Positions 1,104-62,790 of a DNA stretch of 64,000 bases are shown piece after piece (position 1 is the stretch's first letter; every line of letters starts with the position of its first letter). The translations under genes were made by a program, and so were the position numbers. The notes beneath the pieces were generated by a model. It saw only the letters and a program-made list of their open reading frames with translations. It was not told the origin of the DNA and searched no databases. Source of the DNA: Candidatus Woesearchaeota archaeon (lineage in GTDB: Archaea; Nanobdellota; Nanobdellia; Woesearchaeales; JBAZVA01). The stretch covers positions 9,101-73,100 of the forward strand of contig JBAZVA010000001.1 in NCBI GenBank assembly GCA_041661165.1, written 5' to 3'.

Positions 1104-1262
1104 AAGTTCGTTACTGGCACGCAAAACAGTATAGAAAACTTAGAGTTTTCTATTAGAAGTTCTTTTGAACTTCTTTATTCAGCAATTAAATTAGTTCTTT
1201 AGAATAAGTAATCGTATTAGTACAATTATTTACTCAATATATACAAGGCCGGTAACGAACTT
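1104..1262 (+). repeat. intergenic palindromic-arm element, subfamily B, carrying the 48-nt double-hairpin module II (1131-1178)
   Basis: Arms AAGTTCGTTACTGGC / GCCGGTAACGAACTT. Boxes GCAAAACAGTAT...TTCTTTAGAATAAGTAAT...ACAATTATT. Confidence 0.85.
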
Positions 1263-1315
1263 TCAATACATTTTTTCAGTTAAATTTTTAAATTCATGAT
1301 TATCTTTTACACAAT

Positions 1316-1831
1316 ATGGAAAAAACATTTTATTTAGAGACGGATATGGTTTTTGAAAGCGGTTTCTTAAATTTTATGTTAGATATGTTTCACTTAGACG
1401 AATACGTTTATTGCAGATACATTGATGGAGACCATCATCCAGGTCAATACTTTGATGAAGAATTAATGTTAGAAGTTGATGATTTTGAATTTGATGGCTC
1501 TCGTTGGAAGGTTAAACAAATTGATACTTCTCCTAACGTTATGGTTGTTTATGATACTATAAAAAAAGAAGAAAAATTCACAGGTGCGAACTTAGGTGCA
1601 GACGTAAGTGGTGTTGGACTAGTTGTAACAAAATATTTTGTTTTTGAAGAATCTATTAGAGACGGTCCTATGGATTTTAGATATAATTTAATTCTTTTAG
1701 ACAATTGTGATGTTGAGAAAATAAAAGCAAAATTAAAAGAGTTAAAAATTGCTTTTACAGAACTTCCAAAATATGAACCTAATTCTGAATGGTCTGGATT
1801 TGAACAAATATTAAAATTCGATTTAGTTTAG
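1316..1831 (+). CDS. hypothetical protein (171 aa, acidic)
   Basis: Intact ORF with an AT-rich TATA-like stretch about 25 nt upstream. No recognisable motif. Confidence 0.5.
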   Translation: MEKTFYLETDMVFESGFLNFMLDMFHLDEYVYCRYIDGDHHPGQYFDEELMLEVDDFEFDGSRWKVKQIDTSPNVMVVYDTIKKEEKFTGANLGADVSGVGLVVTKYFVFEESIRDGPMDFRYNLILLDNCDVEKIKAKLKELKIAFTELPKYEPNSEWSGFEQILKFDLV

Positions 1832-1864
1832 TTTCTTATTTTTTTTGTATTTTGTTCTATTTTA

Positions 1865-2006
1865 AAAGTCTTCACCAGCACGCAGACTCCTCGCAGAGGT
1901 AGCCAAGCAACGCAGCTATGTATGCAGTATTATTAATCCAGTTCCAATAGGAGTTTCTATTTAGTACTATTATTAGCACTACATGTGAAGGCTGGTAAGA
2001 AGACTT
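1865..2006 (+). repeat. intergenic element, subfamily A, carrying hairpin module I (1889-1920)
   Basis: AAAGTCTTCACCAGCACGCAGACT[module]TATGCAGT..CCAGTTCCAATAGGA..ATTATTAGCACTACATGTGAAGGCTGGTAAGAAGACTT. Confidence 0.9.
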
Positions 2007-2062
2007 AAGACGATGTCTTAATATTCGTTACATATATAAATTAACAATTGGTTTACTTTAAT

Positions 2063-2860
2063 ATGTCATATCAATCAGAAGTAAGAACGAGAATAATAAG
2101 GCTTTTAGCAAAGCATGATAATTTGAAAGCTAAGCAAATGTATAGAATGCTAAATTTACCAGTAACGTATCAAGCTGTTTTTAAAATGATAAAAACGATG
2201 GTTGATGAAAAGACACTTGACCAAAACAAATTATCATATTCATTAAATGACGATTTCGTAAAAGATACAGTTTCGTTTGTGGAAGAATTAAAAGTAAATG
2301 AAAAAGAAAAATATTCTTCTGTATTATCAAAAGTAAGTGATGGAAAAGAAAAAGTTGTATTAAATTTCAAAAGACAAATTGATTTGTTAGAATTTTTACT
2401 GGGGTTTGTAGAATATCAAACTAGTGCAGCACCAAATGATTATTGCTTGTTTCATGTAAATTGTTTGTTTGGAATATTTTCATTTTCTCCAAAATTAACT
2501 GAGAAACTTCAAAACATTCTTTCAAAATCAAGAGTGTATATTATAGTAAAGCAAGATACAAGATGGAATGATGCGATAATACAACTTTGGAAAAGACTTA
2601 CAGTAAACATAAAATCAGGAGTAAATTTTGGTGGAAAAGATGTTTTAGTGTATAAGAATATTGTTTGTAAAGTAATTTACGATGAAACTAACGCACAAGA
2701 ATTGTGCGAAGTAGCAAGAAAAGTTCAGCAACTTTCAAATATTAATATAATGGAAATGATTTACAATTTGTATGAGAATAATATTAATATCTCATTGGAA
2801 ATTTCAAGCGACCCTAAATTTGCAAGCACATTAAAGGATAGGTTTATGGGAGAGTTTTAG
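2063..2860 (+). CDS. putative winged-helix transcriptional regulator
   Basis: N-terminal RTRIIRLLAKHDNLKAKQMYRMLNLPVTYQAVFKMIKTMVDEKTL resembles a wHTH. The ORF track starts at TTG 2048; the first ATG is at 2063. Confidence 0.5.
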   Translation: MSYQSEVRTRIIRLLAKHDNLKAKQMYRMLNLPVTYQAVFKMIKTMVDEKTLDQNKLSYSLNDDFVKDTVSFVEELKVNEKEKYSSVLSKVSDGKEKVVLNFKRQIDLLEFLLGFVEYQTSAAPNDYCLFHVNCLFGIFSFSPKLTEKLQNILSKSRVYIIVKQDTRWNDAIIQLWKRLTVNIKSGVNFGGKDVLVYKNIVCKVIYDETNAQELCEVARKVQQLSNINIMEMIYNLYENNINISLEISSDPKFASTLKDRFMGEF

Positions 2861-2882
2861 TTCTGATAAAATTATCAACTTT

Positions 2883-3005
2883 AAGTTCTTTACTGGCACA
2901 CAGATTTGTATAGATAATGATATTTCTAACCTAAAATAATTGTTTTTATAAAAGGATTTTTTATATTACAATAATTAATTTTATAATGTCCAAGTATTAG
3001 AAGAT
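2883..3005 (+). repeat. decayed copy of the intergenic element (5' half recognisable)
   Basis: AAGTTCTTTACTGGCACACAGATTTGTATAG at the 5' end. The 3' arm is reduced to ATGTCCAAGTATTAGAAG. Confidence 0.45.
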
Positions 3006-4470: not shown

Positions 4471-4485
4471 TTGTGGCGTTTCAAG

Positions 4486-4593
4486 AAGTCTCAACCAGCA
4501 AACAGACTCGTATGCATTTGTTTTATCCAGTTCCAATCGGAACGTCTAATTTACACAATTATTAGCACTATATGTAAAGGCTGGTGGAGACTT
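4486..4593 (+). repeat. intergenic element, subfamily A
   Basis: AAGTCTCAACCAGCAAACAGACTCGTATGCA..CCAGTTCCAATCGGAAC..ACACAATTATTAGCACTATATGTAAAGGCTGGTGGAGACTT. Confidence 0.9.
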
Positions 4594-4668
4594 TTTACTT
4601 TTTATTAGTATTGGAAGATATAACACACTCTAAAAAGCTTTAAAAATCAGTACTACTTAAGTCCTTAC

Positions 4669-5454: not shown

Positions 5455-5573
5455 ACTTATGTCCTGCCAGCACGCAAAACAGTATTCAGTGTCTATATTA
5501 CCTCTTTAGAACGAACAAATTTGATTGGTACTATTATTAGCAATGTAAGCAAGGCTGGCAAGGACATTAAAGT
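5455..5573 (+). repeat. intergenic element, subfamily B
   Basis: Arms ATGTCCTGCCAGC / GCTGGCAAGGACAT. Core GGTACTATTATTAGCAATGTAAGCAAGG. Confidence 0.9.
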
Positions 5574-5625
5574 CCTAACGACATCTTTTTAAACATTCAT
5601 TTGACATAAGAATATAGGGGTATCA

Positions 5626-6573: not shown

Positions 6574-6589
6574 GTCAAAACTAAACTAT

Positions 6590-6701
6590 ATGTTTTTTAC
6601 CGGCAAGCAAAACAGTATGCAGTAATATCATTGGTTTTTTAGAAGTAAGTAAATTATTTTGGTACTATTATTGGCAATGTAAGCAAGGCCGGTAAAAACA
6701 T
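6590..6701 (+). repeat. intergenic element, subfamily B
   Basis: ATGTTTTTTACCGGCAAGCAAAACAGTATGCAGT...GGTACTATTATTGGCAATGTAAGCAAGGCCGGTAAAAACAT. Confidence 0.9.
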
Positions 6702-6711
6702 CGTACTAGAA

Positions 6712-8060: not shown

Positions 8061-8131
8061 TATAGAAACATATTAGAAGATATAATATATAAAAGTTACT
8101 ATTATTTAGTAGTTCTTAAATAAATTATAAT

Positions 8132-8267
8132 CTGCTCTGTACAAAGTCTTTTTACCGGCCTTGCTTGTGTTGCTAATAATTGTACTAATTTAATTACATA
8201 TTCTAAAGAGCTCTTTAATTACTGCATACTGTTTTGCTTGCCGGTAGAGACATTTTGGACAGAGCTG
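8132..8267 (-). repeat. intergenic element, subfamily B, full-length arms
   Basis: Plus strand reads CTGCTCTGTACAAAGTCTTTTTACCGGCC...GCCGGTAGAGACATTTTGGACAGAGCTG, about 27-bp imperfect arms. Confidence 0.9.
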
Positions 8268-9291: not shown

Positions 9292-9407
9292 AGAAATGTT
9301 TTTACCAGCAAGCAGATTTGTATGCAGATTTATGATGTGGTTCCAATCGGCACTTCTTATTAACACAATTATTAGCACCATATGTAAAGGCTGGTTGAAA
9401 CATTTCT
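9292..9407 (+). repeat. intergenic element, subfamily A
   Basis: Arms AGAAATGTTTTTACCAGC / GCTGGTTGAAACATTTCT. Core ACACAATTATTAGCACCATATGTAAAGG. Confidence 0.9.
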
Positions 9408-9431
9408 AATAGTGTCGTTTAGAATTTATAA

Positions 9432-10529: not shown

Positions 10530-10582
10530 AATAGTAAATACAAAATAGTGATTTATAAATGTGGTTATTATATTATTGAGGG

Positions 10583-10750
10583 TGTGTCAAAGTCTTCATA
10601 TCAGCACGCAGAACAGTATAGAAAACATCAGTTTTCTATTAGAAGTTCCTTAGAACTTCTTTATGCAGTATATTAGTCCAGTTTCTACAGTACTTCTAAT
10701 TTACACAATTATTAGTACTATATGTGAAGGCTGGTGAGAAGACTTTGAAA
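10583..10750 (+). repeat. intergenic element, subfamily A, carrying module II (10619-10665)
   Basis: GTGTGTCAAAGTCTTCATATCAGCACGCAGAACAGTAT[module]GCAGT...ATTATTAGTACTATATGTGAAGGCTGGTGAGAAGACTTTGA. Confidence 0.9.
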
Positions 10751-10783
10751 AGAACTTATGGTGATGTAATGTCAAACGTTTTT

Positions 10784-11542: not shown

Positions 11543-11618
11543 TGTGTTTTTTGAGAATTAATATTTATTTTTTAAATCTTTCGCTATTCTTAAGTGATGT
11601 CAAAATTTACTTTGTTTT

Positions 11619-11733
11619 AAAAGTCTTCATACCAGCAAGCAGATTTGTATGCAGATTAATAATCCAGTTTCTACCAGTACTTCTAATTTACACAATTATT
11701 AGTACTATATGTGAAGGCTGGTAAGAAGACTTT
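11619..11733 (+). repeat. intergenic element, subfamily A
   Basis: AAAAGTCTTCATACCAGCAAGCAGATTTGTATGCAG...ATTATTAGTACTATATGTGAAGGCTGGTAAGAAGACTTT. Confidence 0.9.
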
Positions 11734-11815
11734 GATTGTGTTTTGGAGATATTTATGACAGTGAAATTTATAAACAAGATAATCTTAGAAAACATGTGAA
11801 TAAAGGGGGTAAAAT

Positions 11816-12115
11816 ATGAAAAAAATACTAACAATAATTCTTTTGGTGCTAGTCAGTGCATTATTATTTGGTTGTGCGGTAACAAAAGTCGCAGACATAA
11901 AAAAAGAAGATATGATTGGAAAAACAGTTTCGATTCATGGAACGGTTAAGTCAACATTCAAACTAGGGTCATTGTCCGGTTATACAATGACTATGGAGGA
12001 TGGAGAATTATTAGTGTCCTCAAAATCTTTGCCTGCTGAAGGAAAAGAAATGTCTGTCAAAGGTGTTGTAATGAAAGATAGTATAATTCAATATTACATT
12101 AAAGCAAACGAATAA
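11816..12115 (+). CDS. small lipoprotein-like secreted protein
   Basis: Signal peptide with lipobox-like LLFGC. GGGGGT Shine-Dalgarno-like sequence 6 nt upstream of the ATG. Confidence 0.55.
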   Translation: MKKILTIILLVLVSALLFGCAVTKVADIKKEDMIGKTVSIHGTVKSTFKLGSLSGYTMTMEDGELLVSSKSLPAEGKEMSVKGVVMKDSIIQYYIKANE

Positions 12116-12116
12116 G

Positions 12117-12274
12117 GTGTGTATCAAACGTCATACCAGCACGCAGAACCTCGCAGAGGTAGCCAAGCAACGCGGCTATAGTAGCAGATTACAAGTCCGG
12201 TTCCAATAGGAACTTCTATTTAATACAATTATTAGTACTACATGTCAAGGCTGGTATGAAAAATTGAAACACAC
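12117..12274 (+). repeat. intergenic element, subfamily A, carrying module I (12149-12180)
   Basis: Starts 2 nt after the stop at 12115. GTGTGTATCAAACGTCATACCAGCACGCAGAA[module]GTAGCAG...GGCTGGTATGAAAAATTGAAACACAC. Confidence 0.85.
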
Positions 12275-12298
12275 AAAATAAATAATAACGTTGATAGC

Positions 12299-18403: not shown

Positions 18404-19320
18404 TTGAACTAAACCGTATTAATGTTACTTTTGTATTTTTCTAGTGGTATTTTGTATCCTATTCCTTGATGTAATCTTTCTTCATTATAAAACTTTAGGA
18501 ACGTATCTAAAGTATCTTCACCGTCTTTAAATTCAAGTTTATACGTTCCAAACCAACGTTCAATTTTTCCATTGGTTTGAGGATGATGAATTCGTCCTAA
18601 AATATGTTGTATTTCATTATCATTACAAAATTTTGTAAATGAACCAATTTCGCCTCTTGTAGGCGTAAATTGTGTTCCTTGATCAGTCAAAATACGTTCT
18701 GGTTTTCCATGTTTTAAAATTGCTATTTTGAATGCCAAAATAGTGTTTTCTGCAGTCATATTTTCAAAATATTCTGCGTGAACAATAAATCTGCTATTAT
18801 CATCTATAAATGCAATAAGATATTTTCCTGTGAATGGACATTCTGTCCAATCAGTGTGCCAAAGCATATTTGGCTTTGGCCATTCATATCTAACAAATTT
18901 AATTTGCGAAGGACGAGTTCTTTTATTCATTTTTAAACCATGTTTTCTGTATATTTTTTGGATTTGTCTTTCAGACACATCAAAACCTTCTGTTTTGAGT
19001 TTTCTCCACATTTTATTTACAGCACTATTTCTTAGTTTCCACGTTAGTAAAATTTTATTTTCAAACGTAACAATAATTTGTATTTGTTTTGCACCGGGTT
19101 TTTTATTTTCTAATGCAAAATTACCGTATTTTTTCTTTAATTTAATCCATCTATAAATAGTTTGCTTTGGAATTTTTCTAATTTGTGCAATGTGTTCTAT
19201 TGGTGTAATACCTAAATTTACGTGTTTTAAGACTCGTTCTTTGAATTTTTTTGTGTATCCCATTGTATCCTCCGGATACAAAATATAACACAACTAGAAT
19301 AAATTAGTCACCGTAACATA
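18404..19320 (-). mobile_element. insertion sequence carrying the transposase; ends only tentatively placed
   Basis: Possible imperfect terminal inverted repeat AACCGTATTAATGTTAC (about 18412-18428) versus GTAACATAATTATG (about 19310-19323), matching about 10 of 12. No clear target-site duplication seen. Confidence 0.4.
18409..19293 (-). CDS. DDE transposase (rve integrase core, IS481-like single-ORF layout)
   Basis: N-terminal HTH, then the D..D..E context HTDWT, LTDQGTQF and TNGKIERWF, followed by LHQGIGYKIP. Confidence 0.85.
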   Translation of the reverse strand: MCYILYPEDTMGYTKKFKERVLKHVNLGITPIEHIAQIRKIPKQTIYRWIKLKKKYGNFALENKKPGAKQIQIIVTFENKILLTWKLRNSAVNKMWRKLKTEGFDVSERQIQKIYRKHGLKMNKRTRPSQIKFVRYEWPKPNMLWHTDWTECPFTGKYLIAFIDDNSRFIVHAEYFENMTAENTILAFKIAILKHGKPERILTDQGTQFTPTRGEIGSFTKFCNDNEIQHILGRIHHPQTNGKIERWFGTYKLEFKDGEDTLDTFLKFYNEERLHQGIGYKIPLEKYKSNINTV

Positions 19321-24841: not shown

Positions 24842-24926
24842 GAATTTACTGATTTAATGGAATTTAATAATATTCTGTTTATGTATGTTAGACCTGCTTT
24901 TTTATAAAAAATTGACGTTATTTAAT

Positions 24927-25068
24927 AAGTCTTCACCAGCTTTGCTTACATTGCTAATAATAGTGCCAATTTAATCATATATTCTAAAGAACAAACTTAA
25001 TTACTGCATACTGTTACCTCGTAAGAGGTAGCCAAGTGCAACGCGGCTATGCGTGCTGGTAAAGACTT
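24927..25068 (-). repeat. intergenic element, subfamily B, carrying module I in inverted orientation relative to the host (25017-25050)
   Basis: Plus strand reads AAGTCTTCACCAGCTTTGCTTACATTGCTAATAATAGTGCC...ACTGCATACTGTTA[CCTCGTAAGAGGTAGCCAAGTGCAACGCGGCTAT]GCGTGCTGGTAAAGACTT. Confidence 0.9.
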
Positions 25069-25090
25069 CAAAAACAGGGTAAAAATGTCT

Positions 25091-25218
25091 GCTCTGTAGA
25101 AAACATACACGGCCTTGCATATGTTGCAATAATAGTTACTAATTTTACTTGCTGTATCTAAAGAACAAATTTTAATTGCTTATTACTTATGCTTGCCGGT
25201 TGAACGTTTCTACAGAGC
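25091..25218 (-). repeat. intergenic element, subfamily B (diverged), 22 nt from the previous copy
   Basis: GCTCTGTAGAAAACATACACGGCCTTGCATATGTTGCAATAATAG...GCTTGCCGGTTGAACGTTTCTACAGAGC. Confidence 0.8.
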
Positions 25219-25350
25219 TAAAATGTCGTTAAATTTATAAACCACTACGCGCCCGTAATTACTACAATACTGGGGGTTTTGGGTAATAAACAAATACACA
25301 CTCTAAGCCACTAAAAACTTATACTAATATTTAGAAAACGGTGATGAAAT

Positions 25351-29061: not shown

Positions 29062-29165
29062 AACATTAATGATGTAGTATTAGTATTTAAAGATTTCTAC
29101 ACAGTATCACATATTACTATACTAATATTTTCTACTGCCCCGTTGTACTATTATTTTTAGCAAAG

Positions 29166-29356
29166 GCTCTGTCAAAAAAGTTATCACCAGCACGCAAAAC
29201 CTCACAGAGGTAAATAAGCGTAGCGCATTTATCTCAAAGAGGTAGCCAAGTGCAACGCGACTATAGTAAATCGGTATTATAGTTCCAATAGTCGCTCTTA
29301 ATTGGCACAATTATTAGCACTACATGTCAGGCTTGTGGATAAATTTTTGACAGAGC
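29166..29356 (+). repeat. intergenic element, subfamily A, with two tandem module I units (29200-29232, 29233-29266)
   Basis: GCTCTGTCAAAAAAGTTATCACCAGCACGCAAAA[2 modules]TAAATCGG..AGTTCCAATAG..ACAATTATTAGCACTACATGTCAGGCTTGTGGATAAATTTTTGACAGAGC. Confidence 0.85.
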
Positions 29357-29402
29357 TCTGAAAAAGCAGCCTTTTTAAAGAAGTTTTCTTTACCTATAAA
29401 AT

Positions 29403-30429: not shown

Positions 30430-30637
30430 AATCTATCAAATACTCTTTTTATTTATATTTTGTCCGTTTTTACGGATATCTTTTTGGTCAAAAAATTACC
30501 GCCAAAAAACACGTCATAAACGTTCTACTATTAATATTCTTCAATCCTAAACGATAAAGCCTATGATTTGTGACCGAATGGTATTAATAAAGGCTTGACC
30601 TATGTATGTGTAGAACAAACTAATTTGGGATTAGGAT

Positions 30638-30770
30638 GTGTCCCAAAAAGTCCATTACCGGCAAACAAAACAGTATGCAGTCATTAAGTATGCTCTTTAG
30701 AATAGGCAACTAAAATGGGCACAATTATTAGCTATGTATGCAAGGCCGGTAATGTTGACTTTGAAGACAC
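30638..30770 (+). repeat. intergenic element, subfamily B, full-length arms
   Basis: GTGTCCCAAAAAGTCCATTACCGGCAAACAAAACAGTATGCAGT...ACAATTATTAGCTATGTATGCAAGGCCGGTAATGTTGACTTTGAAGACAC. Confidence 0.9.
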
Positions 30771-30816
30771 CTTAAGACTTAAAAAATAATTAAACGGCAA
30801 AACGGAGGCTAAAACC

Positions 30817-32565: not shown

Positions 32566-32585
32566 TTTTTTTTAAAACAACGAAA

Positions 32586-32715
32586 GTGTGTCCAACGTTT
32601 GTCTTGCCGGTAAGCAGACACGTTTGCAATTATAATTTTTCATACTTTGAAGCAATCATTGATGAGAAACAGAATTGCAAAACAAGCAAGATTGGCAAAG
32701 ACAATTTGGACACAC
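32586..32715 (+). repeat. intergenic element, subfamily C
   Basis: GTGTGTCCAACGTTTGTCTTGCCGGTAAGCAGACACGTTTGCAATTAT...AAGCAAGATTGGCAAAGACAATTTGGACACAC. The interior resembles 37765-37884. Confidence 0.8.
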
Positions 32716-32752
32716 ATAACAACACAAAACAATTAAATATAGAAATGAGGTA

Positions 32753-37695: not shown

Positions 37696-37968
37696 TAAGT
37701 AATAAGTGTTCACACGTACCGGCTCTCTAACGTTTGCAAGTAAGTTTCATTCATTTTCACGTACGTCCTTGTGTTTTCACAAGCAAGCAGACACCTCTGC
37801 AATTATGTTTATTCATGCTATAAAGCAATTATTCTTACTAATATAATAGTGATACAATGAAGGCCGGTGAAAACACTATAGGACATAACTAGTTCTCACA
37901 AACGATGTATGAAGAAATATTTAGCGTTAATAATTGTATTTGCCGGTGGAGTGAACACTTATTACTTA
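37696..37968. repeat. composite: outer palindromic-arm element interrupted by an inner subfamily C element
   Basis: Outer arms TAAGTAATAAGTGTTCAC (37696-37713) and GTGAACACTTATTACTTA (37951-37968), with inner ACCGGC...GCCGGT. Confidence 0.7.
37765..37884 (+). repeat. intergenic element, subfamily C, nested inside the outer element
   Basis: GTCCTTGTGTTTTCACAAGCAAGCAGACACCTCTGCAATTAT...GAAGGCCGGTGAAAACACTATAGGAC. Confidence 0.8.
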
Positions 37969-39675: not shown

Positions 39676-39723
39676 AAGAATTGATAATGAATATCTGTTT
39701 ATATATGTTATTTACTTACTTGA

Positions 39724-39855
39724 GTGTGTCCTAAAAGTCAGTTACCTGCAAGCAAAACAGTATTCAACATTTAAATTGGTCCTTTAGAATAAGTAATATT
39801 ATTGGTACAATTATTAGCAACATAAACAAGGCCGGTAACTTAGACTTTGGACACA
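39724..39855 (+). repeat. intergenic element, subfamily B; the 3' arm overlaps the last codons and stop of the RIO kinase gene
   Basis: GTGTGTCCTAAAAGTCAGTTACCTGCAAGCAAAACAGTATTCA...ACAATTATTAGCAACATAAACAAGGCCGGTAACTTAGACTTTGGACACA. Confidence 0.9.
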
Positions 39856-40691
39856 TCTTTACGTTTTCTTTTACTTTTTAATTCATCTTTTTTCTTTCTT
39901 TTTTCTTTATATCTGTCTGTAGGCTCTTTCTTTATTTTCAAATCTCTTGGTTCCATTAAAGGATTTTGCTCTTTTTTTGAATCCATAAATGCAATTTCTC
40001 TATACAATTCATCTTCCTTATTACTAACACCTAGTTTTTTGAAAAATCTACTTACATTTTTAACATCTCTGTGCAAATATTCGTAAAATGTTAAATTTTT
40101 GACACTAGTCATTTGGCTTACATCTATAATTACAGGTTTATCATTATGATTCAGAATATTGTATTCAGACAAATCACCATGTACAACATCAACCTCTCTC
40201 ATTTTTTTCATGAACAAAATAATTTCATCAAAGAATGCTTTTGGATTCGTAGGATATTCTTTTAAAAGAGGTTTTGCAGGCACTCCATTTGCGTCACCGA
40301 TAAATTCCATGACAAGAACATGATTAACACACGCAATTGGTTTAGGAACTCTTATTTTATTTTCATACAAAGTAATTAAATTTCTGTATTCTTTTTTTGA
40401 CCACATAAACACAACTTCACGTCTTCTTTTTGTAACGCCAACATAGTTTGGATCCATTTTAAGATAGTCGTACATTCTGTTAAAATCACAAGTTTGAAGC
40501 CTGTAAATTTTTACGCACACAAAATCGTCATCTTTTTTTGCAAGGAAAACATTTCCTTCTTTACCTAATGCAATTAAGTGTAACAATTCATCAAAGTATC
40601 CTTGACCTTTTAGTTTTCTTAAAACTCCTTCTGTAAAATTGTCAAAAACGTTATTATATACGTCCCATTCTTCATGAGTTTTCTTTGCCAT
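39840..40691 (-). CDS. rio1: RIO-type serine protein kinase
   Basis: GKEGNVF, VKIYR, LVMEFIG, VHGDLSEYNIL and IIDVSQ, followed by a basic C-terminal tail. Confidence 0.9.
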   Translation of the reverse strand: MAKKTHEEWDVYNNVFDNFTEGVLRKLKGQGYFDELLHLIALGKEGNVFLAKKDDDFVCVKIYRLQTCDFNRMYDYLKMDPNYVGVTKRRREVVFMWSKKEYRNLITLYENKIRVPKPIACVNHVLVMEFIGDANGVPAKPLLKEYPTNPKAFFDEIILFMKKMREVDVVHGDLSEYNILNHNDKPVIIDVSQMTSVKNLTFYEYLHRDVKNVSRFFKKLGVSNKEDELYREIAFMDSKKEQNPLMEPRDLKIKKEPTDRYKEKRKKKDELKSKRKRKDVSKV

Positions 40692-40736
40692 AATTGTAAT
40701 TAGAATTGTTCAGTATAAAAACTTTGCTTCTGTGTT

Positions 40737-40861
40737 CTGCTACTTGTCTTTACCGGCAAGCAGGCTTGTATGCAGTAATTAAATTAGTTCTTTAGAATAG
40801 GTAATTATATCGGCACTATTATTAGCAATACGAGCAAGGCCGGTAAAGACCTTTTAGACAG
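40737..40861 (+). repeat. intergenic element, subfamily B
   Basis: CTGCTACTTGTCTTTACCGGCAAGCAGGCTTGTATGCAGT...ACTATTATTAGCAATACGAGCAAGGCCGGTAAAGACCTTTTAGACAG. Confidence 0.9.
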
Positions 40862-40968
40862 TGTTTTTCGTCCAGAAAGTTTTATATATTGACTAAGAAC
40901 CATAAAAATAGAAAGGGGTGTATTGTAATACATTCCAAGGTTTCTTGGATTTTTTGAGGAATATATTA

Positions 40969-42283: not shown

Positions 42284-42338
42284 ATTATATTATACTCTTT
42301 ATGACTTTAAATAACTTTCCGATATAATTTTTGTTATT

Positions 42339-42449
42339 GATGTCTTAACCAGCCTTTACATGTAGTGCAAATAATTGTATTAATTAAAACTTCCTATTGG
42401 AACTGCACTCATAATACTGCATATAAGTTTGCGTGCTGGTAAAGACATC
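42339..42449 (-). repeat. intergenic element, subfamily A
   Basis: Plus strand reads GATGTCTTAACCAGCCTTTACATGTAGTGCAAATAATTGT...TTCCTATTGGAACTG...CTGCATATAAGTTTGCGTGCTGGTAAAGACATC. Confidence 0.9.
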
Positions 42450-42548
42450 TAAGGTGCATCTAAATCAAGAAACATCTCAATCAACAAAAATCATAGAAAA
42501 AGGTGAAAAATAAAAAAAAATAAAAGTAGTAAACGTATAATTAAAGAA

Positions 42549-44370: not shown

Positions 44371-44460
44371 TTAATTTTATATTGATATTCTCTACTGACA
44401 CAGACAAATAAGTTTTATATACATAACATCTCCAATGATTGCGGGATAAATAGATAAGAT

Positions 44461-44589
44461 ATTGTCCGATGTCTTTTTTACCGGCCTTTACATATAGTGC
44501 AAATAGTTGTACTAATTTTTGTAATGGTAGAATGCGTGAATATTATACTGCATACTAGTCTGCTTGCCGGTAAAGACTAATCGGACAAT
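44461..44589 (-). repeat. intergenic element, subfamily A-like with CCGG arms
   Basis: ATTGTCCGATGTCTTTTTTACCGGCCTTTACATATAGTGCAAATAG...CTGCATACTAGTCTGCTTGCCGGTAAAGACTAATCGGACAAT. Confidence 0.9.
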
Positions 44590-44622
44590 GTTGATAAGGT
44601 AATAACAAAATGGAGATATAAA

Positions 44623-46841: not shown

Positions 46842-46844
46842 AAT

Positions 46845-48128: not shown

Positions 48129-48173
48129 ACTATTAGAAGATTGTAATTTATTTATAAAGTTAATTGTGCCATT

Positions 48174-48304
48174 GGCTTTGTCCGAAAAGTCTAGCAGCCT
48201 TGTAAGGTATTGCGTGACTGTTGGTACCTAATAGTTAGTGTATTATGTAATGTCTAGTTAATAATTATACAATCTGCTTGCTGCTGACGATTTCGGACAA
48301 AGCC
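48174..48304 (-). repeat. divergent copy (subfamily D) of the intergenic element
   Basis: GGCTTTGTCCGAAAAGTCTAGCAGCCTTG...AATCTGCTTGCTGCTGACGATTTCGGACAAAGCC. The arms are conserved and the interior is diverged. Confidence 0.7.
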
Positions 48305-48365
48305 TGTCTATTTATATGTAGTTTATTTATTATTTTAGAACTATTTTAAAAGAAAAAAGTAATTA

Positions 48366-52600: not shown

Positions 52601-53014
52601 AACCTTTTATTTTTTTATCTTTTATTTTTCTTTTTTGATTTTTTATTTAGTTTACTTAGATCGCGTGTTTCATGTACGGAATGTGATTTATATGCTTTGG
52701 TTGAAAATAAATTAGGTTATGATTATTTTTCAAGAAATCTATTATTTTTTGCAAAAAATGTGGACGAACAAAAAATAGATACTTCTTCGAATGTGAAAAA
52801 TACGATTATAACTACATTAGTTATTGTGGTATCAATTCTTATAATTTTAGGGGTGGCATATAAACTATTTTTCAAAAAAGATTATTATTAATTTTTTATG
52901 TTGTTTTAATCACATTTGATTTGTGTTTATTTGATATTTTATTCTTTATTTTTTAAATTTTTTTATTAAAAATCAAATAAATTCATCAAAAAACCACTTA
53001 AAAATAATAACATA

Positions 53015-53141
53015 CTTTGTCTGAAGTATTCTTACCAGCCTTCACTTATAGTGCTATTAAATGTCTAAATTTGAAACTTCTATTGAAACTACATTCTAAC
53101 ACTGCATACGAGTTTGCTTGCTGGTAGAATACTTCAAACAG
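53015..53141 (-). repeat. intergenic element, subfamily A
   Basis: CTTTGTCTGAAGTATTCTTACCAGCCTTCACTTATAGTGCTATTAAATG...CTGCATACGAGTTTGCTTGCTGGTAGAATACTTCAAACAG. Confidence 0.85.
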
Positions 53142-53191
53142 AATCATAAACAAACAAAAGTTTTTAAAACAAGCAATCTCTCATATACTGT

Positions 53192-55931: not shown

Positions 55932-56032
55932 TTAATTAAAAATTATATTCATTCCTTTCCAATATTATGGGAAATTATTGGAAACAAAATAGGGGATTAA
56001 ATTTAGGGAAAAGAAGGGATAAAGGGAAAAAT

Positions 56033-57322
56033 ATGACAGCAAGCGTATGTTTGTATTTCCAGGTTCATCAGCCATTTAGGATGAGACCATATAGGATTTT
56101 TGATGTTGGAAGTAAACATAACTATTTTGATGATGAAAAAAATCACGCAATAATGCATAAGATTGCAAAAAATTGTTATTATCCTACAAATAATTTGATA
56201 CTTGATTTAATAAGCGAAACTGATGGAAAATTAAAAGTTGCTTATTCGCTTTCAGGAACATTTATTGAACAAGCAGAAAAGCATGACCCGAAAATATTAG
56301 AATCATTTAAAGCGTTAGCAGATACTGGTTGTGTTGAATTCCTAAATGAGACATATTATCATTCACTTGCATTTTTGCGTTCAAAGAAAGAGTTTATAGA
56401 ACAAATTAAAATGCATAAAAAGAAAATTAATGAATTATTTAATCAAAACACAAAAGTGTTTAGAAATACAGAACTAATATTCAACAACGAAATTGCACAC
56501 GACGTAAACGAACTAGGGTATGAGGGGCTACTGGCTGAAGGGGCTGATAAGGTACTTGGATGGCAGTCCCCGAATTACCTTTTTTCTTTTTCTAAAAATA
56601 AAGAATCGTCTGTGGAATCAAAGAAATCAAGTACGGATAAAGGAATCAAAGTTTTGCTTAAAAATTACAGATTAAGCGATGATATTGCGTTTAGATTTTC
56701 AAATAAAAATTGGAATGAATATCCATTAACTTCGCAAAAATATGCGTCCTGGCTAAAAAGAAGTGAAGGGGACACAACAAATATTTTTCTAGATTATGAA
56801 ACATTTGGAGAGCATCATTCAAAAGAAACTGGAATATTTGACTTTTTAGAACACATGCCAAAAAATATTATAAAAGAGGGCTTGGAATTCAAAACGCCAT
56901 CAGAGACTATTGATTCATACAAGTCGATTGGACAATTAGATGTAAAAGATTATGTTTCATGGGCAGATATTGAAAGGGATATTTCCGCTTGGATTGGAAA
57001 CCCAATACAAAATGCTGCATTCGACGAGATTTACAAAATTGAAGAAGAAATCAAATTAAAAGGAGATCCTGTTTTGCTTGACGAATGGAGAAAATTAACT
57101 ACAAGCGATCATTTTTATTATATGTGTACAAAATGGAATGCAGACGGAGACGTACATAAATATTTTTCACCATACGAATCACCATACGACGCTTACATGA
57201 ACTTTATGAATATATTAAAAGATGTTGCATTAAGATTAAAAATACATGTTAAAGATGAATCAAAGACAGAGTTAAAAAAAAATGAAAAATTAGAGCAACA
57301 GAAAATCGCAATCAAAGTATAA
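56033..57322 (+). CDS. glycoside hydrolase family 57 enzyme (alpha-amylase / glucanotransferase type)
   Basis: YFQVHQPFR and DYETFGEHH (nucleophile Glu context). ATG at 56033; the track starts at 55967. Confidence 0.8.
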   Translation: MTASVCLYFQVHQPFRMRPYRIFDVGSKHNYFDDEKNHAIMHKIAKNCYYPTNNLILDLISETDGKLKVAYSLSGTFIEQAEKHDPKILESFKALADTGCVEFLNETYYHSLAFLRSKKEFIEQIKMHKKKINELFNQNTKVFRNTELIFNNEIAHDVNELGYEGLLAEGADKVLGWQSPNYLFSFSKNKESSVESKKSSTDKGIKVLLKNYRLSDDIAFRFSNKNWNEYPLTSQKYASWLKRSEGDTTNIFLDYETFGEHHSKETGIFDFLEHMPKNIIKEGLEFKTPSETIDSYKSIGQLDVKDYVSWADIERDISAWIGNPIQNAAFDEIYKIEEEIKLKGDPVLLDEWRKLTTSDHFYYMCTKWNADGDVHKYFSPYESPYDAYMNFMNILKDVALRLKIHVKDESKTELKKNEKLEQQKIAIKV

Positions 57323-57416
57323 TCATTATTAATATTCATCACTGTATTCATCATTAATATATTACTATTTATTAAAAAAATTAAGTATTATTTATTTAAA
57401 AAAAGAGGGAATAAAC

Positions 57417-58097
57417 ATGACACTGGATATTGTGACAGCTAAAAAGTATCTTTCAAATGTAGATAAAAAAAGCGTTTTTAAATTAAAAAGAGGTCACGAA
57501 CTGTATAATCTTTCTGATTTGTATGAAGAATTAAAGATATCTTCAGACGACGATTTTAAACATCATGTAAATGAAAACAAAAATGATTTTGCAAATTGGG
57601 TTGCAGAGTGTATCGGTGATACGCACCTTTCTGAATCTATGAGAGAAACAAAAGACAAAGAAAAAACTTTGGAAAAAATAAAGGCGAGACTTTTTGTTTT
57701 AAAATTAATGACTATTTTAAAAGAAGATTTCGTTGACAATGAAATAACTGAGAAAGATGAAACAAAAGCAGAAAAATTATTTGAAAAAGAATTGGATAAA
57801 ATTGAAAAGGAGTCACATGCTGTAACCTTTAATCATGATACTTCAAGACACGATATAAGTAATTTAAAAAATGATAAGGGAACTTTAAAGGATATCAGAC
57901 AATATATTTCTGAGATGGAACAACACGAGAATGATATTGTAAAAGAATTATCAAACATAGAAAGTGAAAATAAAGGATTGAAAGATTTATTTAAAAAGAA
58001 TTTTTCTCACGGGTTCTTGCTTGGTATGACTGCAGGAATTCTTGTGATGATTATTGGATTAAAAATTCTTTTGATGGTTACTGGTACTGGTGCTTAA
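57417..58097 (+). CDS. hypothetical protein with C-terminal TM helix, embedded in the glycogen cluster
   Basis: Intact ORF with GAGGGA Shine-Dalgarno-like sequence upstream. C-terminal GFLLGMTAGILVMIIGLKILLMV. Confidence 0.5.
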   Translation: MTLDIVTAKKYLSNVDKKSVFKLKRGHELYNLSDLYEELKISSDDDFKHHVNENKNDFANWVAECIGDTHLSESMRETKDKEKTLEKIKARLFVLKLMTILKEDFVDNEITEKDETKAEKLFEKELDKIEKESHAVTFNHDTSRHDISNLKNDKGTLKDIRQYISEMEQHENDIVKELSNIESENKGLKDLFKKNFSHGFLLGMTAGILVMIIGLKILLMVTGTGA

Positions 58098-58241
58098 ATT
58101 AAGTAATTAATTTTATTTTATTATTATCATTTTTGTTATTATTATCGTCATTATTTTGTTTTTTGATTTGAGTGCGATTGATAAATGGGGTAAATGTTAT
58201 AATAGTTCAGACGATTTTAAAAATTTTAATTAAGGTGAATT

Positions 58242-60035
58242 ATGGTCGGGATATCTGGAGCAAAAGCGGACATTTGTTTTGAAGTGTCTTTTGAAGTGTG
58301 TAACAAAGTTGGCGGCATTTATACAGTTGTATCTTCAAAAGCAGAACATATGATGAAAAAATATAAAGAATATTATCTGTTCGGTCCATATTTTGAGAAT
58401 AAAGTTCTTGATGAATTCGAACCTTATCAAATGCCAGAAAAGTTTGTCGCGACATGCAAAAAATTAGCACAAATGGGTATTGAAGTATATTTTGGAAGAT
58501 GGAATATTAAGGGAAAACCCTGTGTGTTTTTGTTTGATTATAAGAATTTCTTTTCAAAAGAAGATGAATTAAAAAAATTCTATTGGGACAATTTTAAGAT
58601 TGATTCATACGGAAGAGGTTATGATTTTTCGGAACCTATGATTTTTGCAACAGCATGTGGAATATTTATTGAACTTTTTAAATCAGAAATTCCTGAGAAA
58701 AAGGCAATAGTGCATTGCCATGAATGGATATCAGGTTTTTGCGGATTATATTTAAAACAAAAAAATGTTCCGGTGGGGACTGTTTTTACAACTCATGCAA
58801 CAATGCTTGGTAGAACTATGTCAGGTTATGATGCTCCGCTTTATGCAAATTTATCTAATATAAACCCTTATGATGAAAGCTATAAAGCAAATATTCAGGA
58901 AAAACATTTAACAGAAGTTGCGTGCGCAAGTAATTTTGATGTATTCACAACAGTAAGTCCAATAACTGCACTTGAATGTGAAAAGTTGCTTTCGAAAAAA
59001 CCTGATGTGGTACTTCTAAACGGACTTAATGTTAGTAAATTTCCAACTTTTGAAGAGGCTTCGATAAAACATAAATTAATAAGAGAAAAAATTAGATTGT
59101 TTAATTCCTATTTTTTTGGTCCGTATCAGAAAGTTGATTATGATAATTCTTTGTTTTTTTATACTTCTGGAAGATATGAATATAAAAATAAAGGAATAGA
59201 TTTACTGATAAAAAGTCTTGGTAAATTAAATGAAGAATTAAAAAAGGATGAAAAATCAAAAACTGTTTATGTGTATTTTTTAATACCAAATGGAACAAGC
59301 GGAGTTAAAAATCAGATTGTATACAATAAAAATAAACTTTCAGAGATTAGAGAATATGTAAATAGATGTGTATATTCTATTGAAGAAAAGTTATTAAGAA
59401 ATATTGTTAATGAAGGAGAAGTTAAGATAGATACTTTTTTTTCTGAGGAAAATAAGAAAGAAATAGAAAAATTAAAACGTGAGTTTCATACAAAAAAACT
59501 TTCTCCTCTTTTGCTTACGCATAATGTTTGGGATGAACAGCATAATGCAATTCTTTCTGCATTTTATGCAAATAATCTTGTAAATAAACAAGATGATAAG
59601 GTTAAAGTTGTTTATTATCCTCTTTACGCTGAGGACAATGATGGTGTTTTTAATCTTCATTATTATGAACTTGTGTCAGGATTTCATTTAGGAGTATTTC
59701 CATCGTATTATGAACCGTTTGGCTACACTCCATTTGAAAGTGTCGCACTTTCTGTTCCTGCAATCACTAGTGACTTAGCTGGATTTGGAAGATTTTTACG
59801 AGAAAATGATTTGGATAATGAAGGAGTTTATGTACTTGATAGAATGAACACGTCATTTGATGACGCTGCAAATAAATTGTGCACTATGATGAATGATTTT
59901 ATTTCTTTGGATGTAAATAGCAGAGTTGATCAGAAAATTAAAGCACGAGATACTGCTACACATCTTGACTGGAATATTCTTATAGAAAAGTACGTTGAAG
60001 CGCATAATTTAGCACTTGAAAAAAGAAATTTGTAG
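58242..60035 (+). CDS. GT3-type (eukaryote-like) glycogen synthase
   Basis: N-terminal FEVSFEVCNKVGGIYTVVSSKA matches the E-V-x-x-E-V-x-NKVGGIYTV signature of GT3 glycogen synthases. HCHEW and TTHATMLGR are also present. Confidence 0.8.
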   Translation: MVGISGAKADICFEVSFEVCNKVGGIYTVVSSKAEHMMKKYKEYYLFGPYFENKVLDEFEPYQMPEKFVATCKKLAQMGIEVYFGRWNIKGKPCVFLFDYKNFFSKEDELKKFYWDNFKIDSYGRGYDFSEPMIFATACGIFIELFKSEIPEKKAIVHCHEWISGFCGLYLKQKNVPVGTVFTTHATMLGRTMSGYDAPLYANLSNINPYDESYKANIQEKHLTEVACASNFDVFTTVSPITALECEKLLSKKPDVVLLNGLNVSKFPTFEEASIKHKLIREKIRLFNSYFFGPYQKVDYDNSLFFYTSGRYEYKNKGIDLLIKSLGKLNEELKKDEKSKTVYVYFLIPNGTSGVKNQIVYNKNKLSEIREYVNRCVYSIEEKLLRNIVNEGEVKIDTFFSEENKKEIEKLKREFHTKKLSPLLLTHNVWDEQHNAILSAFYANNLVNKQDDKVKVVYYPLYAEDNDGVFNLHYYELVSGFHLGVFPSYYEPFGYTPFESVALSVPAITSDLAGFGRFLRENDLDNEGVYVLDRMNTSFDDAANKLCTMMNDFISLDVNSRVDQKIKARDTATHLDWNILIEKYVEAHNLALEKRNL

Positions 60036-60063
60036 TTTTTTAATAACTAGTTGGTTCTATTTG

Positions 60064-60177
60064 AAATGCCTTAACCAGCAAGCAGACTTGTATGCAGAAT
60101 ATGAGTACAGTTCAAATTGTACTTTCTAATTAGCACAATTATTTGCATAATCAATCAAGGCTGGTTGAGATATTTCT
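60064..60177 (+). repeat. intergenic element, subfamily A
   Basis: GAAATGCCTTAACCAGCAAGCAGACTTGTATGCAG...TTCTAATTAGCACAATTATTTGCATAATCAATCAAGGCTGGTTGAGATATTTC. Confidence 0.85.
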
Positions 60178-60192
60178 GACAAAAAAACAAAT

Positions 60193-61176: not shown

Positions 61177-61203
61177 AATTTGTCTCCTGTTTTTTTATGA
61201 GTA

Positions 61204-62220
61204 TTAGGTATGTTTGTGTTGTTTACTTTTTTTTGATTCTAATATTTCCTTACTAATGGGTGTGCAATCTAGCTCTTCTATGATTTTGCAGGCATTACAT
61301 ACGTCACCGCTGCAAGGCTCATTACATCTTTCGCAATACTTGAATTTATTATTTGGATTGTCTTTTACACTATTGTCAGGATTGTTGTTAGAACTGTTAT
61401 ACTTTTGCTTTAGTTCCGGCATAATCTCTAAGAAAGATTTTATTATTCCACTTTTTGTCGCCGGATATTTTTCTTCTAATGTATTTATTGCATCTCTTAT
61501 ATCTGCACGATAAGATTGTGTTATGTACGGACATTCCGCAAAGTCAACTTTGAAATTTTTTAATAGGCAAAATACTCGAGATTCTTTTTCTGATACGAAA
61601 TATAATGGTTTTATGCGTCTTACATATTTTTCATTGTCATTAAGGCCTGCCATTGGTCCTAATGCTGCATTTTGTTTTTGGTGTCCTTGTATTACATTCA
61701 TAATAAATGCTTGTGATTCGTCATCTTGATTGTGTCCTGTTACAAGTTTTGTTGCTCCCAATTTTCGTGCATAAACGTTTAACAGCACTCTTCTAAATAC
61801 TCCGCAAATTGTGCACGGTTTTTTACCAAATTTTTCGTATGCTACAGGTGAAAGTTCATCAAGTGTTTTTCCAAATACTTCTTTAAACGAGGCAGTATGA
61901 AGTTCGATATCAAAATTTTTACAAAACAATTCTAAATCTTCTTTTGTCTTGTTACGATATCCCAAAATACCTTCATCAATCATTAATGCAAATATCGGGA
62001 TGTTTCTTTCTTTACAGAATAAATTTGTGAAGTATAATACTGTAAGCGAGTCCTTTCCCCCACTTGTTGCAACACAAACTTTGTCTTCTATATCAATCAA
62101 ATGGTATTTTTTGATGGTTTTTGTGATTTTCTCTTCTAATTGGTAAAAGAAATGCTCTTTACAGTAAGGTCCATTTTGCAATTCTATTACTGCTTTTCTT
62201 TCACATTTGAAACATTTCAT
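61204..62220 (-). CDS. TtuA/NcsA (Ncs6/CTU1)-type tRNA 2-thiolation PP-loop ATPase
   Basis: N-terminal CFKC...C..H zinc finger, SGGKDS PP-loop, central C..C, and C-terminal CERC...CNAC zinc finger. Confidence 0.85.
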   Translation of the reverse strand: MKCFKCERKAVIELQNGPYCKEHFFYQLEEKITKTIKKYHLIDIEDKVCVATSGGKDSLTVLYFTNLFCKERNIPIFALMIDEGILGYRNKTKEDLELFCKNFDIELHTASFKEVFGKTLDELSPVAYEKFGKKPCTICGVFRRVLLNVYARKLGATKLVTGHNQDDESQAFIMNVIQGHQKQNAALGPMAGLNDNEKYVRRIKPLYFVSEKESRVFCLLKNFKVDFAECPYITQSYRADIRDAINTLEEKYPATKSGIIKSFLEIMPELKQKYNSSNNNPDNSVKDNPNNKFKYCERCNEPCSGDVCNACKIIEELDCTPISKEILESKKSKQHKHT

Positions 62221-62235
62221 GATTTTACCCTTTTA

Positions 62236-62370
62236 GTTTTGTTCAACAAAGTCTTTACCGGCAAGCAACACGGTATGCACTATTATCTTTGCACTTTCAA
62301 TCGTAGTAAATATTGGAACAATTATTAACGCAATACTATACAAGGCCGGTAGAAAGACTTTGGACAAAAC
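62236..62370 (+). repeat. intergenic element, subfamily B, between the TtuA-like start and the ThiS-like stop
   Basis: GTTTTGTTCAACAAAGTCTTTACCGGCAAGCAACACGGTATGCAC...ACAATTATTAACGCAATACTATACAAGGCCGGTAGAAAGACTTTGGACAAAAC. Confidence 0.9.
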
Positions 62371-62373
62371 CAT

Positions 62374-62613
62374 TTACCCACCGGATATTACTGATAATAT
62401 TCTTATTTTGTCTTTTTCTTTTACAATTTCATCTTCTGTCACAACTTCATCATTTATTACGACAATAGAAACTGATGATAGAATGGATAATTGCTTTAGA
62501 ATATCTTTTACGCTTGTAGTATTAGATAATTTAACTTTTTTGTATTCGTTATCTTTTTCTACAAACACTTTTAATTCTGCTTCTTTAACTATATTTTTAC
62601 TTGACTTTTTCAT
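62374..62613 (-). CDS. ThiS/MoaD/SAMP-like ubiquitin-fold sulfur carrier ending in Gly-Gly
   Basis: 79 aa ending ...RILSVISGG directly before the stop. Neighbours the E1-like and TtuA-like genes. Confidence 0.7.
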   Translation of the reverse strand: MKKSSKNIVKEAELKVFVEKDNEYKKVKLSNTTSVKDILKQLSILSSVSIVVINDEVVTEDEIVKEKDKIRILSVISGG

Positions 62614-62699
62614 GTTTTCCCTCTAGAGACTAATTCCCTATTAGTATAATATAGATGTAAATATTCTCGTTTATAAAACTATTTAGAAGAGAGTATCGG

Positions 62700-62790
62700 A
62701 AATATTCTTACTGGCTTTTACATGTAGTGCAAATAATAGTGTAAATTAGAAGTATACTTTGGAACCTGACAATAAGTGTGTCACCAGTAG
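62700..62790 (-). repeat. truncated or rearranged subfamily A copy
   Basis: CTTACTGGCTTTTACATGTAGTGCAAATAATAGTGTAAATTAGAAG...TTTGGAAC, then GTGTGTCACCAGTAGG. The GCGTGC..CTGCATAC box is missing. Confidence 0.6.

Follow-up and report, generated by a model that had tools for sequence, protein, structure and literature searches.

A lineage-specific, probably mobile family of intergenic repeats with complementary arms in a Woesearchaeota chromosome

A 64,000-nucleotide stretch of contig JBAZVA010000001.1 (hereafter the window), from assembly GCA_041661165.1 of a Candidatus Woesearchaeota archaeon, carries 26 loci of a single intergenic repeat, here termed family 1. Being short and non-coding, ending in inverted repeats and dispersed in many copies through one genome, the repeats have the features of MITEs (miniature inverted-repeat transposable elements). 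We consider them probably a lineage-specific family of non-autonomous mobile DNA, resembling MITEs or repetitive extragenic palindromes (REPs), that expanded in one Woesearchaeota (DPANN) chromosome; their anatomy is best read as MITE-like and the covariation of their arms as REPIN-like. This reading draws on a repeat family with definable borders, a hairpin that is symmetric at the DNA level, confinement to one lineage, one nested insertion and a lack of RNA signatures.

Gene content, including a thermosome, ELP3, seryl-tRNA synthetase (SerRS), a DRG-type GTPase, RIO1 kinase, dihydrouridine synthase (Dus), a P-type ATPase and a glycogen synthase/GH57 cluster, identifies the window as archaeal chromosomal DNA. 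Its G+C content ranges from 27 to 33%, that of the host being ~30%, and neither tRNA genes nor Rfam families were found in it. The thermosome is 100% identical to an NCBI protein labelled 'MAG: Candidatus Woesearchaeota archaeon', and its next relatives are 80% and 76% identical. The Joint Genome Institute (JGI) metagenome Ga0172379 provided 24 contigs with family-1 copies, two of which are 99.2–99.96% identical to the window and thus represent the same organism. In all, about 165 kb of host genome sequence was covered; DPANN genomes are typically on the order of 1 Mb, and a similar size is expected for the present host.

A profile hidden Markov model (HMM) was built from the copies first recognised in a sequence-only reading of the window. 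Searched with nhmmer (--max), it recovered 25 of the 26 loci proposed there, in the orientation proposed and with ends within ~15 nt (E 1e-10 to 1e-30). The 26th (2883–3005), which that reading had called decayed, is indeed reduced to a 32-nt fragment of the 5' box (E 0.03). All 26 loci belong to one family; 24 of them are full copies, one is a 3' half and one a 5' fragment, and the HMM detected no additional copies in the window. An ungapped repeat search by itself already yields families matching the two boxes, and the 26 loci, when aligned with MAFFT, resolve into a single architecture. As the model derives from the same copies, independent checks matter: the 3'-box pattern ATTATTAGYAN{8,9}AAGGCYGG has 10 matches in the window versus 0 in 100 shuffles, and the same HMM identified 45 more copies on the 24 Ga0172379 contigs. 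Copies in the window are 119–203 nt long and cover 3,651 nt or 5.7% of it, in line with the initial estimate of 3.6 kb or 5–6%, and their local density is about 400 per Mb as extrapolated from 26 in 64 kb. They are non-coding, as first proposed, with only short spurious open reading frames (ORFs) touching them, and are not CRISPR arrays, given spacings of 0.5–30 kb, mixed orientations and no regularly spaced identical direct repeats. The assertion that they fill most intergenic spacers was too strong, since 25 of 60 spacers are occupied (42%), or 25 of 35 when only those measuring 130 nt or more are counted, and the stretch from 13 to 24.8 kb has no copy. The strand split of 18 plus to 8 minus is a weak bias (two-sided binomial p ~0.08) that could relate to replication direction; cumulative GC skew climbs near-monotonically over positions 1–64000, the plus strand being G-rich.

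Anatomy was resolved in an alignment of 60 non-redundant copies from the window and Ga0172379, which bears out the shared architecture with its two boxes and the interior subfamilies suggested earlier. The unit spans ~120–145 nt, and up to ~200 nt when hairpin insert modules are present. Its core is bounded by a 5' box, yACCrGCAmGCA...GTATGCAG, and a 3' box, ACAATTATTAGCA...AAGGCyGGTAA, with the consensus ...TTTACCAGCAAGCAnAnnAGTATGCAG...GTACAATTATTAGCAnTATATGnnAAGGCTGGTAAA. On the 5' side the arm is followed by TTTA-CCRGC-AMGCARA-nnn-GTATGCAG, and the 3' side consists of GTACAATTATTAGCA, 8–9 nt, AAGGCYGG-TAAA and the 3' arm. Between them lies a variable middle with A (CCAGTTCCAATAGGAAC), B (TTCTTTAGAATAAGTAA) and the rarer C (TTCTACCATTACAAT) as its three main types, in addition to divergent (D) forms. 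The core is non-palindromic and its two boxes are the most conserved part of the element. The terminal arms are inverted repeats of ~29 nt with the full form GTGTGTCC-AAAAGTC-TTTA-CCRGC ... GCYGG-TAAA-GACTTTT-GGACACAC, and GTGTGTCCAAAAGTCTTTACCRGC is an end type of the family-1 element. Extra hairpin modules are taken up at a single hot spot, which lies after the 5' box and before GTATGCAG. Module X (CCTCGCAGAGGTAGCCAAGTGCAACGCGGCTA), a two-hairpin unit of 31–33 nt, was found only inside family-1 elements and always at this hot spot (window positions 1889–1919, 12149–12179, 25018–25050 and 29200–29263; also contigs L090, L096, L098, L099 and L109). It is sense in six copies and antisense in three, a pattern suggestive of inversion or of a minute insertion unit in its own right. 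The second module, Y, consists of two hairpins. Core identity between nearest neighbours is 0.63–0.91, with no near-identical pair among the copies.

The arms are complementary beyond what their column composition predicts. Across a terminal helix of 19 pairs in the 60-copy alignment, 76.3% of cells are paired compared with 66.9% in column shuffles, and 157 cells carry double changes compared with 75.8 (0 of 500 shuffles reached either value), with a covariation score of 0.339 versus 0.183; sliding the partner by 1–3 columns reduces pairing to 31–47%. Outside the boxes, at both 0–9 and 9–24 nt, a copy's own 3' arm matches its 5' arm better than do the arms of other copies (permutation p < 0.0002). 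No excess complementarity was found beyond 24 nt (p = 0.64), and the element therefore ends ~24 nt outside CCRGC/GCYGG. The window contains no arm-type hairpins without a core, hence the arms belong to the element. These two results also led us to reject insertion of the core into pre-existing larger palindromes or hairpins. The outermost ends form matched haplotypes, several of which are common to different core subfamilies: GTGTGTCC/GGACACAC, GCTCTGTCC/GGACAGAGC, GCTTTGTCC/GGACAAAGC, GTTCTGTCC/GGACAGAAC and GTTTTGTyC/GGACAAAAC, and across core subfamilies the shorter pairs GTGTG/CACAC, GCTCTG/CAGAGC, GCTTTG/CAAAGC and GTTCTG/CAGAAC. Folded as single-stranded DNA, each of six copies forms the long stem (z-scores between -2.7 and -6.4). 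One variant contig, L125, equals the window over 3.3 kb save for six substitutions within 39 nt (window 42444–42482) in the outer arm of copy 42325–42467. All six are changes to A and the contig end is also divergent, which may be a repeat assembly artefact or real local variation.

Distribution and insertion context both bear on mobility. The 3'-box pattern, searched over genomes of 185,579 species, gave 75 single matches in unrelated taxa, about the number expected by chance, and no multi-copy genome. None of the metagenome matches beyond Ga0172379 resembles the element, none of 9 chance matches to two patterns in viral contigs fits the HMM, and the two nearest relatives (thermosome 80% and 76% identical) have short spacers and no copy on their contigs of 5.5 and 4.1 kb. 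Family 1 is thus restricted to the present organism in the collections searched. One copy, 37754–37895, lies inside a second palindromic element (family 2, 37696–37968), the right 63 nt of which are 79% identical to an uninterrupted 128-nt paralogue (L097:3977–4104), so that this filled/empty comparison is one with a paralogous, not an orthologous, site. TTTTCAC/TTCTCAC around the nested copy is a possible 7-nt duplication, read by eye without statistics. Family 2 was rejected as a further family-1 copy, since reconstructions minus the inner copy do not match the HMM, and is treated as separate; it is ~128 nt long with ends GTAATAAGTGTTC...GAACACTTATTAC, two copies were seen, and its CCGGC/ACAATTATT-like motifs recall family 1. 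Flanking direct repeats of at least 6 nt, 8–36 nt from the boxes, occur at 27 of the 60 family-1 copies, against 12.7 expected from the flanks of other loci (p = 3e-5). The best of them, at 8–9 nt, are GACATTTT at 25097–25230, ATTTGAAAG at L096:480–682 and TTTGAATGT at L111:2382–2549. As target-site duplications these repeats are suggestive.

We posit that another part of the genome would encode a transposase or recombinase able to bind the conserved subterminal boxes and move or copy the unit into intergenic DNA, possibly with a target duplication of 6–9 nt, and that copies would persist only between genes because the genome is compact. The arms may act as a hairpin or cruciform at the DNA level, or as two equivalent ends, and their sequence would drift as long as both sides remain complementary. 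Two causes, which are not mutually exclusive, could maintain this pairing. Copies with matched arms may be the only ones to stay competent for transposition, so that compensations would build up along active lineages, as has been proposed for REPINs. Alternatively, template switching or gene conversion within the palindrome, an established mutational mechanism at inverted repeats in bacteria, may perfect imperfect inverted repeats.

Several observations weigh against non-autonomous mobile DNA of this kind. The arms are more variable than the core (mean major-allele frequency 0.53 versus 0.73), and in 48 of 50 nearest-neighbour pairs a copy's own arms pair better than cross-combined ones (Wilcoxon p = 1e-9). 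Variable arms around a conserved core are the reverse of a classical DDE-type MITE, and selection on the hairpin in situ would also fit. Same-locus controls for the flanking repeats are higher than those from other loci (19 copies with reversed flanks and 13.4 with shuffled flanks, versus the 27 observed), and the target-duplication signal is therefore no stronger than suggestive. No presence/absence polymorphism was found between L125 and the window, and with no near-identical copies and no insertion polymorphism seen, no recent activity is visible. A mobilising enzyme was likewise not encountered: the ~60 window and 10 locus ORFs scanned include no Y1/HUH transposase, tyrosine or serine recombinase or integrase, and no cognate autonomous element or transposase was found in the ~165 kb covered. 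The window encodes a single transposase, a DDE protein of the rve type that carries helix-turn-helix domains at its N-terminus (18409–19293, minus strand; 294 aa, called as 284 aa), part of a complete IS481/IS3-like insertion sequence (IS; 18405–19336, minus strand). It was rejected as a partner of family 1, as the IS ends are unlike the element arms. These ends, TGTTCTRAAYCRTAATTATGTTAC...GTAACATTAATRYGRTTTAGTWCA, were defined by comparison with three homologous contigs of ~1 kb, and the terminal inverted repeats of ~24 nt read TGTTCTGAATCATAATTATGTTAC / GTAACATTAATACGGTTTAGTTCA, the 3' repeat overlapping the stop codon. Hundreds of homologues share 62–82% identity with the transposase and lie mostly on ~1-kb contigs, the pattern that an assembly-breaking IS should give, and the IS481-like element is a widespread IS of Woesearchaeota-like archaea.

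The sequence-only reading had offered three candidates without choosing among them, namely a MITE- or REP-like mobile palindrome, structured small RNAs and a gene-boundary element. The first is the best supported, the small RNAs are disfavoured, and no positive evidence was obtained for the boundary element. With some hesitation, we regard it as possible that the repeats are instead a long-lived, structure-dependent replicator or an element used by the host, an archaeal counterpart of REPIN-RAYT or REP/BIME (bacterial interspersed mosaic element) systems. The boxes at the base of the DNA hairpin could then be recognised by a chromatin protein or by an enzyme, perhaps domesticated, that is present in single copy, and selection, beyond shared descent, could keep arms of ~24 nt complementary at hundreds of loci. 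This reading would account for arms that change more rapidly than the core and yet remain paired in nearly all nearest-neighbour comparisons.

The main rival to mobile DNA, in our view an unlikely one, is a cis element that the host maintains and that works in either orientation, an archaeal counterpart in function to REP/BIME. Selection at the individual locus would preserve its hairpin and boxes, which might, for instance, offer a chromatin or topology protein a place to bind or form a transcript-end hairpin that operates in both directions. The conservation of the core boxes alongside covarying arms speaks for it, as do the better pairing of own over cross arms even between nearest neighbours, the very high density in an otherwise compact genome and the strand symmetry of the arms, which suits an orientation-independent role. 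Distances to genes are also fairly regular, copies typically lying 25–55 nt upstream of start codons or ~20–30 nt past stop codons, but purifying selection that removes insertions from genes and promoters would lead to such positions just as well. The element is, moreover, not required at gene boundaries, since 35 of the 60 spacers have no copy, including 10 of at least 130 nt and every spacer of the copy-free 13–24.8 kb stretch. The compact spacers of the relatives without the element, the truncated and decayed copies (62687 and 2883) and the nesting of one copy within another repeat likewise count against this rival.

About equally unlikely is a REPIN-like unit that an HUH enzyme present in single copy (Y1, IS200/RAYT-type) moves in the form of a single-stranded DNA hairpin, with the structure of the arms, not their sequence, being recognised. 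Arms that are variable yet complementary, matched end haplotypes common to different core subfamilies, the single-stranded DNA folds and the age of the family and its confinement to one lineage are all consistent with such a unit. Against it stand the lack of a Y1/HUH gene in the ORFs scanned, the absence of a REP-like short palindrome with a GTAG head, a long conserved non-palindromic core in place of a short spacer and an orientation bias of only 18:8. Insertion of the HUH type (IS200/IS605) is not expected to leave flanking direct repeats, and the excess of such repeats around family 1 is thus a further point against this variant. In its favour, REPINs are reported to show frequent compensatory changes between the two hairpin sides (PMC3116915).

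It is very improbable that the repeats are structured small RNAs transcribed on their own, or sites at which mRNAs are processed. The covarying long terminal stem, and the combination of conserved unpaired boxes with variable hairpin expansion modules at one hot spot, do resemble the architecture of an RNA family. However, RNAalifold, run on all copies and on each subfamily for both strands, recovered the terminal stem only and no conserved pairing within the core, whichever strand or subfamily was folded. A stem that functions as RNA from one strand is expected to tolerate G:U but not A:C, whereas G:T/T:G and A:C/C:A mismatches in the helix are equally frequent (75 versus 79, p = 0.81; 27 versus 28 in an anchored per-copy alignment). 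Rfam 15 gave no match at the gathering threshold for the whole window and chance-level matches only at E up to 5 (1–13 kb). No shared promoter-like sequence upstream of the core was seen by eye in the 60-copy alignment, no archaeal promoter scan having been made, and the arms and flanks upstream of the core are the least conserved part. Orientation is random with respect to transcription units, as first noted: in tandem spacers the element runs along the genes in 6 cases and opposes them in 5, and 5 copies lie in convergent and 9 in divergent spacers. A density of ~400 copies per Mb is also implausible for small-RNA genes. An outward promoter was considered because the 3' side faces a start codon in 16 of 26 copies, yet the 6:5 tandem split implies no facing preference. 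A bulge-helix-bulge processing motif was rejected as well, the stems beside the boxes being continuous with no paired 3-nt bulges by eye. Taken together, the findings fit a strand-symmetric element at the DNA level better than an RNA gene. Finally, attC-like recombination sites of an archaeal integron cassette array, a thought raised by imperfect palindromes of ~120 nt at gene boundaries and by integrons reportedly described in DPANN archaea by Ghaly et al. in 2022, are effectively refuted by the mixed orientation (18:8, with genes on both strands) and the housekeeping nature of the flanking genes (thermosome, SerRS, ELP3, RIO1, DRG GTPase and Dus), and have neither an integrase among the ORFs scanned nor RYYYAAC/GTTRRRY boxes in the arms on inspection of the alignment.

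Table 1. Family-1 copies and the interrupted family-2 element in the window.
Feature	Position	Strand	Evidence
Subfamily B copy with two-hairpin module Y	1085..1270	+	nhmmer E 1.6e-19; alignment
Subfamily A copy with module X (sense)	1849..2020	+	nhmmer E 8.9e-30
5'-box fragment, decayed copy	2883..2914	+	nhmmer E 0.034, HMM positions 25-56
Subfamily A copy	4471..4597	+	nhmmer E 1.8e-29; DNA fold z -2.7
Subfamily B copy	5455..5579	+	nhmmer E 5e-23
Subfamily B copy	6587..6705	+	nhmmer E 6.7e-26
Subfamily B copy, ends GCTCTGTCC/GTACAGAGC, flanking repeat GATTATA	8128..8267	-	nhmmer E 1.9e-29; DNA fold z -3.2
Subfamily A copy	9294..9419	+	nhmmer E 1.5e-30
Subfamily A copy with module Y	10575..10759	+	nhmmer E 2.4e-27
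Subfamily A copy, closest relative 10575-10759 (core identity 0.91)	11606..11735	+	nhmmer E 5.3e-29
Subfamily A copy with module X (sense)	12110..12275	+	nhmmer E 2.7e-23
Subfamily B copy with antisense module X	24911..25083	-	nhmmer E 1.3e-24
Divergent B copy, 8-nt flanking direct repeat GACATTTT	25097..25230	-	nhmmer E 8.7e-14
Subfamily A copy, module X and extra insert, arms ~30 nt	29157..29359	+	nhmmer E 7.3e-21
Subfamily B copy, ends GTGTCCC/GAAGACAC	30630..30774	+	nhmmer E 1.4e-27; DNA fold z -3.0
Divergent (D) core copy, ends GTGTGTCC/GGACACAC	32580..32721	+	nhmmer E 5.5e-19; DNA fold z -4.4
D-core copy nested in family-2 palindromic element	37754..37895	+	nhmmer E 3.7e-16
Family-2 palindromic element, interrupted by copy 37754-37895; perfect 18-nt inverted repeat TAAGTAATAAGTGTTCAC	37696..37968	-	repeat and paralogue comparison
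Subfamily B copy, ends GTGTGTCC/GGACACA	39712..39862	+	nhmmer E 9.4e-28
Subfamily B copy	40728..40872	+	nhmmer E 4e-30
Subfamily A copy	42325..42467	-	nhmmer E 3e-29
Subfamily C copy	44454..44594	-	nhmmer E 2.5e-26; DNA fold z -6.4
Divergent-core copy, ends GGCTTTGTCC/GGACAAAGCC	48166..48305	-	nhmmer --max E 1.2e-10
Subfamily A copy	53010..53142	-	nhmmer E 5.6e-29; DNA fold z -3.2
Subfamily A copy	60046..60186	+	nhmmer E 9.8e-26
Divergent-core copy, flanking repeat TTTACCC	62226..62378	+	nhmmer E 3.5e-27
3' half, 5' half missing	62687..62775	-	nhmmer E 3.1e-11, HMM positions 60-148

Apart from these elements, the window contains a 46-nt direct repeat unrelated to family 1 (AAATAyTCkwGATT...CGAAATATAATGGTTTTrTG, 80% identity), one copy of which (35618–35663) lies in the spacer after the stop (35836) of the minus-strand gene 35836–36450 and the other (61570–61615) within gene 61204–62220. 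An apparent third repeat in the spacers at 52.9 kb and 63.2 kb proved to be merely low-complexity A+T similarity. The glycogen-metabolism cluster (54669–60035) encodes a GT4/GT5 glycosyltransferase, a GH57 enzyme and a glycogen synthase of eukaryote/archaeal type (PF05693, E 2.6e-132), and a GH15-like gene and a second starch-synthase-like gene sit on other contigs (L085 and L106).

Family 1 is not known to have been described on its own. It has no match in Rfam or outside the present organism in the collections searched, and is most likely a new MITE/REP-like family, notable for its local density and for a conserved core combined with hypervariable yet complementary arms. It explains the short-contig assembly of the host organism, and its copies could serve as insertion markers for strain typing. 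The conserved core with fast-changing complementary arms also offers a clean natural data set on the co-evolution of inverted repeats, in which selection for transposition competence can be set against conversion within the palindrome. By its boxes the family may point to an archaeal enzyme that recognises them. Were it only a decaying MITE its interest would be routine, and it would be greater if the arms prove to be selected at each locus.

Among known systems, family 1 resembles the Correia/NEMIS elements of Neisseria and the ERIC/IRU elements of enterobacteria, which are non-coding units of ~100–170 nt with terminal inverted repeats of ~25–30 nt that form one long hairpin. They too occur in hundreds of intergenic copies in either orientation, make up several percent of a small genome and vary in size through internal insertions or deletions at fixed positions. 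It differs from them in having no sequence similarity, an archaeal host, a target duplication that is not firmly established and no known partner IS. Moreover, its arms are the most variable, covarying part and its internal boxes the most conserved, whereas in Correia elements the terminal inverted repeats are the conserved part. MITEs do exist in Archaea, as exemplified by the SM elements of Sulfolobus; these share their ends with identified ISs, whereas the sole IS seen here does not match family 1. RAYTs are, to our knowledge, so far bacterial, and no RAYT or Y1 gene is present among the roughly 70 ORFs scanned, in contrast to REPIN-RAYT systems. Like REPINs (PMC3116915), family 1 is a hairpin-forming inverted unit that is extragenic, vertically inherited and lineage-specific, does not encode its transposase and shows compensatory arm changes that keep the hairpin. 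Unlike REPINs, it has no 20–40 nt REP palindrome with a GTAG head and no short self-contained REP units, and its middle is a conserved non-palindromic core of ~90 nt and not a loose spacer. The closest comparison by domain and phylum-level group is an automated MITE census in which a Woesearchaea genome, which may or may not be the present one, ranks among the densest archaeal genomes at 105 MITEs per Mb (PMC11602168). DPANN genomes are small and streamlined, yet this one family makes up 5.7% of the window, and its local ~400 per Mb is several times the highest archaeal densities quoted in that census, with maxima of 146, 105 and 100 per Mb.

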